Part shown: piece after piece, positions 5,115-19,128 of the stretch
Numbering within the stretch: position 1 is the first letter of the stretch
How the letters are laid out: each line of letters begins with the position of its first letter
From: Candidatus Latescibacterota bacterium
Lineage (GTDB): Bacteria > Latescibacterota > UBA2968 > UBA8231
Reading direction: 5' to 3'
NCBI GenBank assembly: GCA_965217585.1
Contig: OZ244561.1
Coordinates: 4,928,001-4,992,000, forward strand
Length of the DNA: 64,000 nucleotides
Made by a program: the position numbers and the translations under genes
Notes under the pieces: generated by a model
Told to the model about the DNA's origin: nothing
Seen by the model: the letters and a program-made list of their open reading frames with translations, nothing else
Database searches by the model: none

Positions 5115-5365
5115 TTAAAACTTGCCTTCATTTTTCGCCTGATTTCAGACTTCATTTGGTGGACCGAAACAGGCTTTCTTCCAAATTTATACAACTTCCC
5201 GAAAATCTCATCTACCGCTACTTTTTTGGTCATAGGCTTTAGGAGTGCTTCACCATTTTCTGTGAGCATAAAATCGACTTTATCGCCTTCACGGAGTTCC
5301 AGAGCATCTCGAACGGTTTTGGGAATTGTAATTTGCCCTTTACTTGTCAGCGTTGCCGTTGCCAT
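5111..5365 (-). CDS. AbrB/MazE/SpoVT family antitoxin
   Basis: TLTSKGQITIPKTVRDALELREGDKV; overlaps the toxin by 4 nt. Confidence 0.92.
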   Translation of the reverse strand: MATATLTSKGQITIPKTVRDALELREGDKVDFMLTENGEALLKPMTKKVAVDEIFGKLYKFGRKPVSVHQMKSEIRRKMKASFK

Positions 5366-5391
5366 GCTATGCTCCTCTTATTGAATGTTTA

Positions 5392-5414
5392 TTTCTTACT
5401 TAAAAGTAAGGAAA
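5392..5414. promoter_or_regulatory. Palindromic operator upstream of AbrB-VapC operon
   Basis: CTTACT-taaa-AGTAAG inverted repeat about 30 nt upstream of the antitoxin start. Confidence 0.55.
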
Positions 5415-5526
5415 ATGACACTTGAGTGCAAATGACAGTTGGAACGTCGGCCTTGAGCAAGTCAAACGCCGTTTCCGTCGCGAGGGCGGCAGATGACGAA
5501 GCTTTCCAGGTCAAGGTGCGCGGCAC

Positions 5527-13892: not shown

Positions 13893-14856
13893 ATGTTATC
13901 GACTCTTTTGCAAATAACAACACCTAACAAAGTCATCGGCTGGACGGCCGTTGTGCTGGGGCTGTTTTGCGGCCAGGTGGCGGCGCAAGCGGCGGCTCGC
14001 GTTGAAGTGCCCATTTTTGAGGGCGGTGCGGGATTGGACTTTTTCTTTTTTGCCGCGCGCGAATACGAAAAGGCCCGTCCCGATGTGCAGGTTGATCTCT
14101 ATGGCGACCCGCGCATCGCCGATAAGGTGCGGGTGCGGATCCTCGAAGGGACGTTCCCGGAAGCCAGCAACGCGGGTCTCAACTACTGGGCGCTGATACG
14201 CAACGGCGAAATCCTGCCTCTCGACGACTATCTGGACGGGCCGAGCTGGGATGGGGACCGGACTTGGCGCGCGTCCTTCCTGCCCGGCAGCCTCGACCGC
14301 TATGAGCACGAGGGCAAGATCTACGGCATTCCCTTCCTCTATTCGGTCTATGCCGTCTGGTACAACAAGAACATGTTCAAAGAGCACGGCTGGGCACCGC
14401 CGCGCACTTGGGACGAGTTTTTCGCCCTCTGCGAGCAAATCCGCGCAACAGGAGTTTGGCCGCTGGCCTTTCAGGGGCGTTATCCAGGCTATATCGGCGG
14501 CGTGACCGACAACGCCTATTATCATCTCGCTGGCCGGACGCGCTTCTACGAGCAGAAGGAGTTGGTGCCGGGCAGTTTCGCCAATCCCGAATACGTGACG
14601 GCGCTCGGGCTTATTCAGCGCACGGCGCAGGAGTACTTCCAGCCCGGTGCCCTCGGCATGAGCCACACTGAGGCGCAGCTCGAGTTTTTCTTGGGGCATA
14701 CCGCGATGGTCTTTTGCGGCTCTTGGCTCAAAAGCGAGATGATGGGCAAAATCCCCGACGGCTTCCGCTTGGGGACGTTTAATTTGCCCGTGGTCGAGGG
14801 CGGAGCCGGCGAACCCGGTGCCATCTATACTGGTGCCGGGTATTACTTTGTCTTCA
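13893..14856 (+). CDS. Exon 1 of solute-binding protein/ABC permease fusion (interrupted by group II intron)
   Basis: GKIYGIP, WYNKNMF, PRTWDEF SBP motifs; joining 14856 to 17780 restores frame YYFVF-K-NSAHPELG (770 aa in total). Confidence 0.85.
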
Positions 14857-15300
14857 GTGTGAGCTTAAAGTCGCTCATGTCCAGTGAAAACAAGAACTTG
14901 CAGTCTTGTTTTCTTCATTAGTATGCAGATGAATCTCCACATCCCCTTGCGTCCTGAGTAATTGGGAGGTCTGAAACAGGGATGGAAAAGCCTAATGTCC
15001 AACGAAACTACTATCGTGGGACAGGGCAAGGAGAAGTGAGAAAGGGTGAACGGAAGTGAATCTGTATAGGCTTCGTAACGATTAACCGCCGAAACAGTAG
15101 TTGATTACGGCGGACGGGCTAAGAAATCGGCTGCGTCTCAGGCCGATGAAGGTCAAACGTGCTGAAGAGCGTTTGACTGGCATACCAAGGCCCCGGAGTA
15201 TTTGCAGGCACCCGACCCTCACGTTTCTGGCATGTGCGGAAAAGCGGAACACCATTGAGGTCTGTGGGAAACAGAAGATAAAAAGATGCCCAGATTGAAC

Positions 15301-15343
15301 AAAAAAAGAGGCAGGGGTGTTGACAATGACATCCCCCACCTCT
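15301..15343 (-). terminator. Intrinsic terminator on minus strand within intron domain II
   Basis: Minus-strand stem GAGGTGGGGG/CCCCTGCCTC (two G-U pairs) followed by seven T. Confidence 0.65.
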
Positions 15344-15494
15344 CTTGCTGTTTAACTGAAAGAGGTCCCGGAACCTTGATTAATTTGAGTGGTCATAGCA
15401 CTCAAATTCAAGTTACCCGTGAGCCTGTAGGAGATGGGTTGATTTCTCAAAAACCCCATCAACTCCACTCGTTGATTAAACGGAGTAGAACTAC

Positions 15495-15656
15495 TTATTC
15501 ATCCTCCTCCTCTTGGTCATCATCCAAGAGGGATTGGGCGGCTAACGTAGCTCCAACTCCAATAGCGAGCGGAATACCTACGGCAGCAATAAGCGGTATC
15601 GAGAGAGCCTTTCCTATAAAAGGTATCCCGACTATTGCAATATTGCCCAAGGACAT
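15495..15656 (-). CDS. 53-aa hydrophobic peptide with acidic tail, antisense cargo in intron domain II
   Basis: GAGGAGG RBS just upstream of ATG 15656; MSLGNIAIVGIPFIGKALSIPLIAAVGIPLAIGVGATLAAQSLLDDDQEEEDE; downstream terminator. Confidence 0.7.
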   Translation of the reverse strand: MSLGNIAIVGIPFIGKALSIPLIAAVGIPLAIGVGATLAAQSLLDDDQEEEDE

Positions 15657-16025
15657 AAAAAATCCTCCTCTGACAGTAAAAGCTGGTGGATAAAAGTGGC
15701 GAAAGGACGGCCTTCGCCACACCCGCCAACTGAGAACGAAGGACAAGAACGACCATACGGTCAGACTTGTCAAGTTCTTGACAGCTTCAATCTCTGGCTC
15801 TTTTGATAACTCTCTGACTACCATAGTAACCCAACCGCAAGGGAGGCTGAATCCCTCAGTGGTAACAGGATGTCCCAAGATGCGAAAGCCCGCAGCCGAA
15901 AGGCACCGGAAATACATAACCGGCGGGATAGGGCAATACCCAACGCGAAAGCGTGCGGACGTGGGACAGGTGAAACCGTCCATAAGGTTGCAGAAGTAAC
16001 CTTGAATCAGAAAGGAGACGCGCAG

Positions 16026-17720
16026 ATGGGATACCCGAGCGATCCACTGAAACTAACTCGATGGAACGACATTGACTGGTTCAACACCATCGACGCAGTT
16101 AAAGGCTTACGACAGCAAATCTTCAGGGCGTCTAAGTCAGGAGACAAGAGGAAACTCAAGTCTCTGCAACGACTGATGTTGAAAAGCAAGGCCAATGCCG
16201 CTGTCAGTGTCCGGCAGGCCACGCAAGTCAACAAAGGTCGGGGAACACCGGGAACCGACGACCGTATTGCTCTGACCGGCGAGTTGAGAACTGAGTTGAT
16301 GCACGAAATACTGAGCATTGACGACTGGACTCCACAGCCAGCCAGAAGGGTCAACATCCCGAAGGCCAATGGCAAAACCAGACCATTAGGCATTCCAGCT
16401 ATTGCCGACCGCTGCAAGCAGGCGATGGTGAAGAATGCGCTTGAACCCCAATGGGAAGCCCGGTTTGAACCCTGTTCATATGGGTTCAGGCCGAGCCGAT
16501 CCTGCCATGATGCGATTGGCCGCATTTTTCGCGTAGCCCTCCCACACGGAAATAAAAAGTGGGTGGTCGATGCGGATATAAAGGGAGCCTTCGACAACAT
16601 CAGCCACGAACACCTATTAGACCAGTTGCAGGGTTTTCCAGAACTCGGACTGATTGAAAAGTGGCTCAGAGCTGGTGTGATGATAGAGGGCATCTTTCAG
16701 GAGACAGTAATGGGAACCCCGCAAGGGGGTGTTATCAGCCCGCTACTGCTCAACGTAGCTTTGCATGGAATGGAGGATGCGGTAGGGGTGCGTTACCAGC
16801 AGCACGGGAAATACACCCAACTGATAAGCAACGTGGCTCTAATCCGATATGCAGATGACTTCGTTATCTTCGCTACTACTAAGGAAGAAGCCGAATCATC
16901 GAAAGACCGCATAGACGATTGGCTCAAGGACAGAGGGCTGGAACTCTCGCAAGAGAAAACCAGTATCCGAAATCTGCGAGAAGGGTTTGACTTTTTGGGT
17001 TTCAACATCAAGGAATACCAGAAAGCAAGCACTGGAAAAGTCAAATTGTTCATCAGGCCCAGTCAGGATGCAGTCGCGCGATTTCAGGACAGGTTACGGC
17101 AGGAATGGACCAATCTACGGGGCCAAAATGCCGATACTGTAATGAGCAGACTTAATCCGATTCTTAGAGGTTGGGGAAACTACTATAAGCATGTAGTCTC
17201 ATCGCGCATCTTCAGCAAGATGGATGACTTCAACTACTGGAGAAGCCGTAGGTGGATGAATAAGACCCACCCGAAAAAGAGCGATGACTGGAAAACAAAC
17301 CGCTACCACCAAGTGCAAACCAAGCCGGGCTTAGTCAAAAGATTCGGGAATGTCGAAACAGGGCAATATCTCTTTCGATTGACTGACCTTCGGATTGATA
17401 GGCACATCCTAATCCGGCATGGAGCATCACCGGATGACCCAGAGATACGGAACTACTGGAAGAAAAGGGAGAAGCGGAAAACGGAACTCCTACCAAGTGC
17501 CAAGCATGAGGCATTGGCCCAACTGCAAGAGGGCGTGTGTGCCGAGTGCATGGGGAGCTTATACGGAGATGAAAAACTGGAAATTCATCACTGTATCCCA
17601 AAAGGTCAAAGTGGGAGGGACAAGCTCGTTAATCTCCGATTGGTTCACCGTATTTGCCATGAGCAAATAAGTTCCAAAACACTTAGAGGCGAAACGGTTT
17701 GCTTGAGCCGTGTGCGGTGA
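16026..17720 (+). CDS. ltrA: Group II intron reverse transcriptase/maturase with HNH endonuclease
   Basis: RVT_N (WNDIDW), RPLGIP, SYGFRP, GTPQGGVISPLL, RYADD, maturase LNPILRGWGNYY, C-terminal CxxC...EIHH...N...HRICH; AGGAG RBS before ATG 16026. Confidence 0.95.
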   Translation: MGYPSDPLKLTRWNDIDWFNTIDAVKGLRQQIFRASKSGDKRKLKSLQRLMLKSKANAAVSVRQATQVNKGRGTPGTDDRIALTGELRTELMHEILSIDDWTPQPARRVNIPKANGKTRPLGIPAIADRCKQAMVKNALEPQWEARFEPCSYGFRPSRSCHDAIGRIFRVALPHGNKKWVVDADIKGAFDNISHEHLLDQLQGFPELGLIEKWLRAGVMIEGIFQETVMGTPQGGVISPLLLNVALHGMEDAVGVRYQQHGKYTQLISNVALIRYADDFVIFATTKEEAESSKDRIDDWLKDRGLELSQEKTSIRNLREGFDFLGFNIKEYQKASTGKVKLFIRPSQDAVARFQDRLRQEWTNLRGQNADTVMSRLNPILRGWGNYYKHVVSSRIFSKMDDFNYWRSRRWMNKTHPKKSDDWKTNRYHQVQTKPGLVKRFGNVETGQYLFRLTDLRIDRHILIRHGASPDDPEIRNYWKKREKRKTELLPSAKHEALAQLQEGVCAECMGSLYGDEKLEIHHCIPKGQSGRDKLVNLRLVHRICHEQISSKTLRGETVCLSRVR

Positions 17721-17779
17721 AAGTCGCACGCACGGTTCTGAGGGGGGCGGAGGCTGGCGACAGTCTCCGCCTACCCGAC

Positions 17780-19128
17780 AAAACAGCGCCCACCCCGAGT
17801 TGGGCGTGGATTTTTTGCGCTTTATGACCTCGCGGGAGATGGCCGGCACCTTCGCCGAGATGCGCGATGTTTTGGTGGCCGTCGATGGGGCGATGGAAGG
17901 GCGGACCAGCGAGGATTTGCAGGATTTGGTGGAATTGGCGCAGCAGGCTTCTACGGCCTATGGCACCGCTCCGGGCGAGGGCTTCCCGGAGATGGACCAG
18001 TTCCTCAACGATGTGCGTTTCAAGATCGTCAATGGGCAGCTAACGCCGGAGGAGGGGGCCAGAGAGCTGGAGTCGGCGGCTGAGGCGGTGCGCAACCGCA
18101 GCCAGCACCCAGATCAGATTACCATCCGCCATCTGTGGAAACCTGCGCTGCTGTTGGGCCTTTTGGCGTTGGCGATGGGCTATTGGTTGTACACGACGGC
18201 GCGGCAGTGGCGCGCGAGGCAGGTCGGCCAAGCGCCACGGCCTACTAGCACCGTGCGTTTGAAGTGGGCTGGGGTGGTGTTCTTCGTCGGGCCGGCGGCG
18301 GCGTTCTACACGCTCTTCGTGGTGGTGCCCAGCATCAAGTCCTTCTTCTGGAGCGCGATGCGCTGGGACGGGCTGACGGAGATGGTCTTTGTCGGGCTGT
18401 TGCACTTCCAGCGGCTGCTTTTTGAGAGCGACGAGTTCTGGATCGCGCTGTCGAACAATCTCTTCATCATGTTCATCATCCCGCTCTGCGTGTTGCCGCT
18501 AGCGCTTTTTCTGGCGGTGTGCATCAGCCGCGAGGTCGTCGGGGCTAAGCTCTTCCGCATCGTCTTTTTCTTTCCCAACATTCTCGGCGGGGTCGCGGCG
18601 ACGCTGCTGTGGATGCACCTATACAATCCACAGGGCGGGCCGATCAACACGGTGTTGGTAGCCTTGGGATTGGAGGGGTTTGAAGGCTTTGCTTGGCTGG
18701 CGCAGGACAATCTCTACTGGGCGCTGATACCCATGTCGATCTGGGGTGCGGCCGGGTTCAATATGGTGCTGTTTTTGGCGGCGATGGAGAGTATTCCGCA
18801 GAGCATGTACGAGGCGGCTGACATCGACGGGGCCTCGGCTTGGCGGCAGTTTTGGTCGATTACGGTGCCGCTGATTTGGGAGGTGCTGTCGATAGCGATC
18901 GTGTTTATGATCATCGGCGGGATGAAGGCGTTTGAGGTGATTTGGCTGTTGACCAATCAGCGGCCGACGACTGACAACCACGTGATCGGCACGCGGATGG
19001 TGCAGGCGATGTTTACTGAGTTCAAGGTGGGGGAGGCGACCGCGATTGCAGTGTTGCTCTTTTTGATCGTGTTCTTTGGCACTACCGCGACCTTGCGCGC
19101 GATGAAGCGCGAAGCTGTGGAGTTTTGA
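17780..19128 (+). CDS. Exon 2 of solute-binding protein/ABC permease fusion
   Basis: SBP C-terminus followed by MalF-type permease with MYEAADIDGASAWRQF EAA motif. Confidence 0.85.

Follow-up and report, generated by a model that had tools for sequence, protein, structure and literature searches.

The 64,000-nt stretch of DNA analysed here (the window; positions 4,928,001 to 4,992,000 of contig OZ244561.1, from a Candidatus Latescibacterota bacterium) contains a group II intron of IIB-like type, and domain II (DII) of this intron holds an insert of about 553 nt which, on the minus strand, carries a predicted small gene with its own ribosome-binding site and terminator. An earlier reading of the letters alone (the sequence-only reading) had proposed such an antisense mini-gene in an expanded DII, and all of the sequence features that it named were found at the coordinates it gave. 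The elements of DII, of the insert and of the mini-gene are as follows, numbered from the first letter of the window.

15251-15260, plus strand: DII basal stem, 5' arm, pairing with 15854-15863; covarying in 50 relatives and kept in the minimum free energy (MFE) fold
15262-15267, plus strand: DIIa sub-hairpin stem, 5' arm CUGUGG, pairing with CCAUAG at 15821-15826; read from the sequence
15268-15820, no strand: lineage-specific insert of about 553 nt, GC content about 0.46, replacing the DIIa terminal loop; from a split nhmmer alignment
15278-15299, plus strand: 22-nt imperfect inverted repeat, left arm (right arm at 15786-15807); 77% complementary, paired in the MFE fold
15301-15346 (about), minus strand: hairpin resembling an intrinsic terminator, with T7; from sequence and fold
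15495-15656, minus strand: open reading frame (ORF) for a 53-aa hydrophobic peptide with an acidic tail (P0001), stop codon included; from translation
15664-15670, minus strand: Shine-Dalgarno (SD) sequence GAGGAGG; from sequence
15696-15720, minus strand: in the 5' leader of the mini-gene, a GC hairpin and then TTTTAT; terminator-like, 10 pairs in the scan
15750-15763, minus strand: second leader hairpin; from the terminator scan
15752-15781, minus strand: candidate weak promoter-like site, TCAAGA, an 18-nt spacer and TATGGT; 7 of 12 matches in a relaxed scan
15830-15847 (about), plus strand: DIIb hairpin with a GCAA tetraloop, retained; a conserved hairpin at alignment columns 45-62 in 50 relatives
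15854-15863, plus strand: DII basal stem, 3' arm; same basis as the 5' arm

The ribosome-binding site of the mini-gene (15670-15664) lies 7 nt upstream of an ATG at 15656, from which the frame runs through 53 codons to a stop ending at 15495, followed by a structured 3' untranslated region (UTR) of roughly 150 nt and by the GC hairpin with its run of seven T, the 58-nt segment around which folds at -27.8 kcal/mol. This hairpin with T7 (15346-15301) was not reported by the terminator scan. Upstream of the 53-aa ORF its frame remains open for another 109 codons, into domain III (DIII; 15495-15983, minus strand), which is taken as incidental because homologues start at the SD-preceded ATG. Compared with shuffled sequences the insert folds far better on both strands (z -8.95 for the plus strand and -8.44 for the minus strand), and in the MFE structure of a 501-nt antisense RNA, the ends of which were guessed, every base of the SD was paired, some of them with 15361-15365 in the 3' UTR.

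The exact 53-aa product is recorded among the called proteins of the source contig and has relatives elsewhere, of which P0003 (54 aa) is 80% identical (E 1.6e-17) and P0009 73% identical. A profile search of 1.84 billion representative proteins returned five at E<=0.001, with a homologue at E 2e-7, and a word-indexed profile search gave 12 family members including P0009, all of them unnamed singletons or small clusters. Residues G15, A17, P21, G27 and P29 are invariant across the 12 members, in which the hydrophobic core is broken by Gly and Pro and the tails diverge, being acidic, basic or polar; by eye, P0001 differs from P0003 and P0009 mostly by exchanges of one hydrophobic residue for another, with all five invariant residues kept. 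P0001 is predicted to be a small, hydrophobic membrane peptide, and AlphaFold2 modelled it as a single long helix (predicted local distance difference test score 71, predicted template modelling score 0.35). It matched no family in Pfam, NCBIfam or PADLOC, and no match was confirmed in JGI metagenome contigs. The strong homologues, together with the folding of the insert, indicate that its features exceed chance, and judged from these comparisons the antisense ORF is a genuine conserved protein-coding gene of a rare family, with its own SD and terminator.

A tblastn search had been proposed in the sequence-only reading to see whether the peptide occurs mainly inside introns. The window copy lies in an intron, and those of two other genomes (G073 and G076) are free-standing genes outside introns, with good Shine-Dalgarno sequences. 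By profile search the family was present in three of 168 genomes of the phylum, plus one weak match; the other phylum-wide tblastn matches of P0001 (E<=0.1) were mostly transmembrane segments of long ORFs, and only those in G073 and G076 were retained. These free-standing members lie at L103 1179-1632 (G073) and at L209 (G076). In G073 there are two copies in tandem, with strong SDs, directly upstream of an AAA_15 ATPase that matches defence ATPases of the NsnB/AriA/GajA/Old type.

To place the insert, a nucleotide model of domains I to III (DI-DIII) was built from two insert-free relatives, L005 and L008; it aligns unbroken to nearly all loci. With nhmmer, window positions 14857-15266 corresponded to model positions 1-421 and 15819-15984 to 424-592, leaving about 552 nt unaligned, and the homology of DI-DIII to those of relatives was evident on either side of the insert (E 3e-31 and 4e-30). 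DII measures 61-96 nt in 152 of the collected relatives and 613 nt here. RNAalifold, applied to DII of 50 relatives (every second one of 140 locatable segments), predicted 18 pairs, 16 of them with compensatory changes, in a consensus made up of a basal stem, a first hairpin (DIIa) with a loop of variable length and a second hairpin with a GYAA cap. The basal stem of the window is the pairing of ACCATTGAGG (15251-15260) with CCTCAGTGGT (15854-15863), including one G-U, that the sequence-only reading had put forward, and its DIIa stem is homologous to columns 14-18/37-41 of the relatives' DII, where the loop is length-variable. With the basal stem, the DIIa stem and the GCAA hairpin all retained, the placement in DII stood and was narrowed to the variable terminal loop of DIIa. 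In the MFE fold of the whole 613-nt DII these stems were kept, and the insert was closed by a long helix formed from the inverted repeats at its ends. The GYAA hairpin and the basal stem are presumably the carriers of the known tertiary contacts of DII.

The intron around the insert, its intron-encoded protein (IEP) and its interrupted host gene were delimited as listed here, with DV and DVI standing for domains V and VI.

13893-14856, plus strand: 5' exon of the host gene, the substrate-binding part of a fused ABC transporter ORF; from the ORF list and the exon join
14857-17779, plus strand: group II intron, IIB-like, 2923 nt, starting GTGTG and ending AC; from Rfam, nhmmer and contig junctions
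16026-17720, plus strand: IEP, 564 aa, with RVT_N, RVT_1, GIIM and HNH domains (Pfam)
17703-17779, plus strand: DV and DVI; Rfam RF00029
17780-19128, plus strand: 3' exon of the host gene

The match to RF00029 (17703-17779) scored 69.3 bits, against a gathering score of 40. Contigs from all four sequencing runs inspected (X1-X4, of one study) contain an intron-less junction from 14856 to 17780 that skips exactly 2923 nt (GT..AC), with flanking sides of only 19-30 nt; this junction fixes the intron limits at 14857-17779 and means that an intron-less form exists in the same samples. In silico, the joined exons (13893-19128) form one stop-free ORF, in which a solute/substrate-binding domain is fused to an ABC permease domain. 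The closest solved chain to the IEP was 6me0_C (full-length match, E 5.6e-108), which we take to be a chain of a IIB intron ribonucleoprotein. With the IEP domains intact, the host ORF restored by the exon join and the intron-less junction present in four of four runs, the intron looks functional from its sequence. It is present in one copy in the source genome of 7.3 Mb.

Other forms were seen in the same data. In all four runs there are contigs in which 15974 is joined directly to 17695 and the IEP ORF is missing; their word depths are 20-96, above the 11-58 of the bins of the full-length intron, and ORF-less derivatives of related introns seem to be common in these samples. In run X1 a single contig (depth 3.7) links 17762 back to 14859 with 19 other letters between, and could represent tandem or nested related introns or a form derived from a circle. 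An orphan DV/DVI fragment (L002, G000:C1:3437313-3437385), 93% identical to the 3' end of the window intron, lies just after a small gene, with no 5' intron part and no IEP nearby.

Relatives of the IEP were found at 18 places in nine of 168 phylum genomes, at 80 loci from species-representative genomes and at 80 loci from metagenome contigs; the single IEP used as a query against genome contigs gave no match, and an alignment used as the query retrieved the relatives. Large inserts are rare in this collection. Seven were examined, namely that of the window, one each in L139, L006 (the same place as L022), L122 and L124, and two in L007. The L139 insert (244 nt) lies in DII, and those of L006, L122 and L124 and one of the two in L007 are inserts of 320-420 nt in the terminal loop of a DIII sub-hairpin (model positions 514-521, a hairpin loop in the DIII consensus structure of 129 distinct sequences), at these coordinates.

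L006, 3258-3677: DIII-loop insert
L122, 1-400: DIII-loop insert
L007, 957-1359: DIII-loop insert
L124, 3032-3356: DIII-loop insert

On the minus strand of the L006 insert there is an AAGGAGG-type SD and a 27-codon ORF (P0016) with a hydrophobic core and a lysine tail, and 7 nt past its stop a hairpin of 8 bp, 7 of them GC, with a T-run. In the L122 insert the minus-strand SD is TAGGAG, and the ORF, again of 27 codons but different, encodes a hydrophobic core and an arginine tail; an 11-bp terminator lies about 20 nt past the stop. In the MFE folds of both of these cassettes the SD was paired with leader segments. The DIII insert of L007 holds an antisense ORF of 82 aa, which has an 81-aa homologue (P0008) at 70% identity; a 52-aa hydrophobic frame starting with TTG gave way there to the overlapping 82-aa frame, on account of this homologue. 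The L124 insert has a 66-codon ORF with a hydrophobic C-terminus and no clear terminator. A TATGGT-like word near the minus-strand 5' end of several inserts was considered as a shared promoter motif, and is not claimed because by eye it looks like a hairpin arm in L007 and L122 and its spacing to TTGAC words is inconsistent.

Compared with each other the inserts showed no detectable nucleotide similarity. L006 and L122, with IEPs that are 87% identical, carry cassettes at the same insertion site that cannot be aligned, and their intron cores align closely, by eye, 3' of and up to the insertion point. Searches with the 27-aa peptide of L006 in 76 genomes of the family found only itself, as did searches with the L006 insert DNA in five genomes, apart from 26-nt chance matches. 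When 69 intron proteins were placed in a quick maximum-likelihood tree, the window grouped with L006, L122, L007 and the insert-free L005 (Shimodaira-Hasegawa-like approximate likelihood ratio test support 99), so that inserts are present in four of the five rows of this group; L124 and L139 fell in other clades. On supported branches the insert label had to change at least three times; as few changes as observed sufficed in only 5 of 500 shuffles. This suggested several gains or exchanges of cargo, with a concentration in one clade and two structural sites of insertion. The description of DII as a cargo bay in the sequence-only reading thus held for the location and for the gene, and is strengthened by the antisense mini-genes that relatives carry in a DIII loop.

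Four further observations concern the relatives. The second insert of L007, of about 400 nt (about 90-460), lies about 30 nt past the 5' splice site in DI and has no convincing ORF on either strand. L124 has 295 nt of extra sequence (5129-5424), with no evident ORF, between the IEP stop codon and DV, and among the 92 loci with DV detected no other has more than 60 nt there; DV was detected with a single-sequence model that missed 73 of 165 loci and is informative on little beyond L124. The multi-copy intron of G098 has a 5' part of normal length. At L078 340-1456 and L090 1785-2900 (Actinomycetota metagenome-assembled genome) the 5' part of one intron (model 1-490) is followed directly by a complete second copy, which has the look of twintron-like nesting at about model position 490.

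As far as sequence can tell, then, this otherwise intact intron carries a complete antisense gene in one of its tolerant loops, and the design recurs in relatives. We put at about an even chance the reading that these are real antisense cargo genes in tolerant loops, probably resembling type I toxins, with the intron transcript as the complementary RNA. The toxin-like traits, as predicted, are a length of 27-82 aa, a hydrophobic helix or segment, the strong fold of the antisense RNA (z -8.44) and an SD that is paired in the MFE structure. A gene cassette complete in itself would have entered a IIB-type intron at the terminal loop of DIIa, which is free to vary in length; the cassette, on the opposite strand, would comprise a structured leader, a strong SD, the 53-codon ORF, a structured 3' UTR and an intrinsic terminator. 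The antisense orientation would be the one that the intron tolerates, since a terminator or ribosome site in the sense direction would presumably cut short or disturb the intron RNA, and the cassette terminator would stop antisense transcription before DI and the upstream exon. The ends of the insert would pair in the intron RNA, so that it folds away as an extension of DIIa. The mRNA for the peptide would be fully complementary to the intron or pre-mRNA produced whenever the host gene is transcribed, and the intron transcript might act as its cis-antisense partner, holding down translation or triggering cleavage of the duplex. Were the sense transcript lost or silenced, a stable, folded peptide mRNA would be freed, and the result would be an addiction-type module, or one that senses shut-off, copied with the intron through an RNA intermediate.

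Several observations count against this interpretation. A stricter promoter scan of the window cassette gave no site at 9/12 (best match 7/12), and none at 9/12 was found in the L006, L122 or L007 cassettes. Among the sequencing runs searched for 15100-16100, none of RNA contained it. No plus-strand promoter/terminator pair was found by scan within the insert, and no dedicated antitoxin small RNA (sRNA) gene is visible. The peptides tested matched no known toxin or other family in Pfam, NCBIfam and PADLOC (the 82-aa ORF, P0008 and the L122 and L124 peptides in Pfam only), and the best score in a protein atlas was 0.79, which gave no lead. The acidic tail and the hydrophobic stretch of about 40 residues in P0001 are unlike most described type I toxins, and an SD paired in MFE structures for which the transcript ends were guessed carries little weight. 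Of the seven large inserts, two (in DII of L139 and in DI of L007) have no convincing antisense gene, and the antisense gene of L124 is doubtful. Insert-bearing introns are single-copy in their genomes and the insert-free L005 has two copies, suggesting that the load may cost mobility. An addiction effect is also hard to picture, as the toxin and the antisense template would be lost together.

It is most improbable that the insert is a remnant of an insertion sequence (IS) or miniature inverted-repeat transposable element (MITE), an inner intron forming a twintron, or an assembly error, possibilities of which the IS/MITE remnant and the misassembly had been named in the sequence-only reading as what could overturn it. 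An inverted repeat at the insert ends and the nesting seen in L078 and L090 are what such origins might leave; against them, the insert is single-copy in its own genome and absent from 75 other genomes of the family (one 31-nt chance match only), no transposase ORF is present in its region of the ORF list, and neither strand matched an Rfam family at E<=5 beyond noise. The earlier statement that no transposase or IS ends are visible held for the transposase; as for ends, there is only the 22-nt repeat (15278-15299/15786-15807), and IS/MITE was ruled out by the one copy in 76 genomes, the lack of a transposase and a complementarity of only 77%. A twintron was rejected as there is no second DV, and no other group II match at E<=5 within 14800-17850. 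Matches to the insert in a phage collection (blastn) and to P0001 in a plasmid collection (tblastn) were likewise lacking. Both borders of the insert were crossed with 0 differences by contigs of all four runs (X1 14827-16957, X2 15059-16949, X3 and X4 15184-16014), which rules out misassembly; these runs possibly include the genome's own sample, and the contigs exclude a long-contig assembly error, not strain-level doubt.

Other explanations accept the insert as genuine cargo or sequence and differ on what it does. It could be a neutral or host-beneficial hitch-hiker, an expressed gene for a small membrane protein that lacks toxin activity and any functional link to the intron RNA, in which antisense is merely the tolerated orientation. 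The free-standing genes of the peptide family and the lack of homology to toxins would fit this, and orientation is by itself no argument for regulation, given that a sense terminator would truncate the intron RNA. We nevertheless find it rather unlikely, because at least three cassettes unrelated to that of the window, each for a very small peptide with a hydrophobic segment, recur in one clade and cassettes turn over between introns that are 87% identical, which selfish modules explain more easily than random capture of ordinary genes, and because full complementarity to a transcribed RNA would hardly be without effect. That the insert is decaying debris, captured foreign DNA now silent in a free loop with the ORF as a relic, is unlikely: although the scans gave no convincing promoter, L139 and DI of L007 have ORF-less inserts and the intron is single-copy, both ORF and terminator are intact here and the SD spacing is optimal, the five invariant residues are kept with mostly hydrophobic exchanges (by eye) relative to P0003 and P0009, and three further cassettes have an intact ORF, two of them with SD and terminator. 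Less probable still is an expansion selected for the intron RNA itself (stability, protein binding or folding) in which the antisense ORF is incidental. The plus strand does fold very strongly and the insert ends are paired; such folding is not specific to that strand, since complementary strands share helices, and protein-level conservation in 12 members including free-standing genes, the absence of an Rfam match and the lack of shared sequence among the relatives' inserts all speak against a sense-strand function.

The toxin-like cargo reading can be extended, tentatively, to the whole clade. The loops of the DIIa and DIII sub-hairpins may be exchangeable landing pads for antisense genes resembling type I toxins, for which the retroelement transcript (pre-mRNA or excised intron) would be the antitoxin; such genes would spread by retrohoming and would punish loss or silencing of the intron, or fire when a phage shuts off transcription. 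If true, this would add a class to the known toxin-antitoxin arrangements and give retroelements a survival strategy that is new.

In the common view, bacterial group II introns are minimal retroelements with no coding content beyond their own reverse transcriptase. The sequence-only reading knew of no described example of such cargo, and in the open-access literature on group II introns no description of such cassettes was found. In this soil-type bacterium, which is uncultured, the locus suggests a previously undescribed cargo route for these retroelements. If antisense genes are naturally carried in ribozyme loops, retroelements would be seen to ferry genes through an RNA intermediate, and the DIIa and DIII loops would be natural, size-tolerant insertion sites of use in targetron engineering. 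A selfish RNA may here be coupled to small membrane peptides in a circuit like that of toxin-antitoxin modules, with the ribozyme transcript as the regulator. The findings also add a small-protein family that is rare and unannotated, as well as candidate toxins invisible to homology searches.

Type I toxin-antitoxin modules such as hok/sok, fst, tisB/istR-1 and ldr provide one comparison. Shared with them are a very small hydrophobic peptide (53 aa, under about 60 aa, and 27 aa in relatives), a highly folded mRNA with a predicted sequestered SD, a complementary RNA from the same locus, and residence on a mobile element with poor sequence conservation and fast turnover. The cassettes differ in that none of the peptides scanned against Pfam, NCBIfam and PADLOC is homologous to a known toxin family, and in that the complementary RNA would be the whole intron or pre-mRNA and not the product of a dedicated antitoxin sRNA gene. 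Engineered targetrons with cargo in domain IV (DIV) show that group II introns can in principle carry foreign genes through retrohoming; that cargo is artificial and in DIV, whereas the antisense cassettes here are natural and in DII or DIII.

Among natural variants, the available text of a 2015 review (PMC4424553) lists introns without an endonuclease, degenerate IEPs, LAGLIDADG ORFs, ORF-less introns, trans-splicing, altered splice sites, alternative splicing and twintrons, and its list, as seen there, omits antisense cargo and independent antisense genes. Twintrons and IS elements in bacterial group II introns share with our case extra DNA nested in an intron (PMC4424553, available text); unlike them, the window insert is single-copy and shows features neither of an intron nor of a transposase. 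In integron-associated (attC) group II introns, according to the portion of PMC7923331 consulted, internal promoters act on the strand opposite the intron and toxin-antitoxin cassettes stand beside introns in integrons, not inside them; those promoters drive neighbouring cassette genes outside the intron, whereas here the gene lies within a ribozyme loop.

The nearest precedent, as far as the accessible text of PMC13190283 (2026) goes, is that of group II introns bearing LAGLIDADG ORFs, which are found in the loops of domain IB, DIII and DIV and for which repeated modular capture is argued. These introns, of fungal and algal mitochondria and of Thiotrichaceae, likewise hold a foreign ORF, repeatedly acquired, in a peripheral loop besides the usual DIV (PMC13190283 and PMC4424553, in the parts available). 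Their ORFs are described in those parts as intron-encoded proteins, which we take to mean on the sense strand, and as mobility enzymes that in the proposed model follow the loss of the reverse transcriptase. The window peptide matched no Pfam family, and thus no LAGLIDADG family, and its ORF is antisense. In contrast to the LAGLIDADG introns, the cargo described here consists of antisense ORFs for tiny predicted membrane peptides, with their own SD and terminator, beside an intact reverse transcriptase/maturase/HNH protein.

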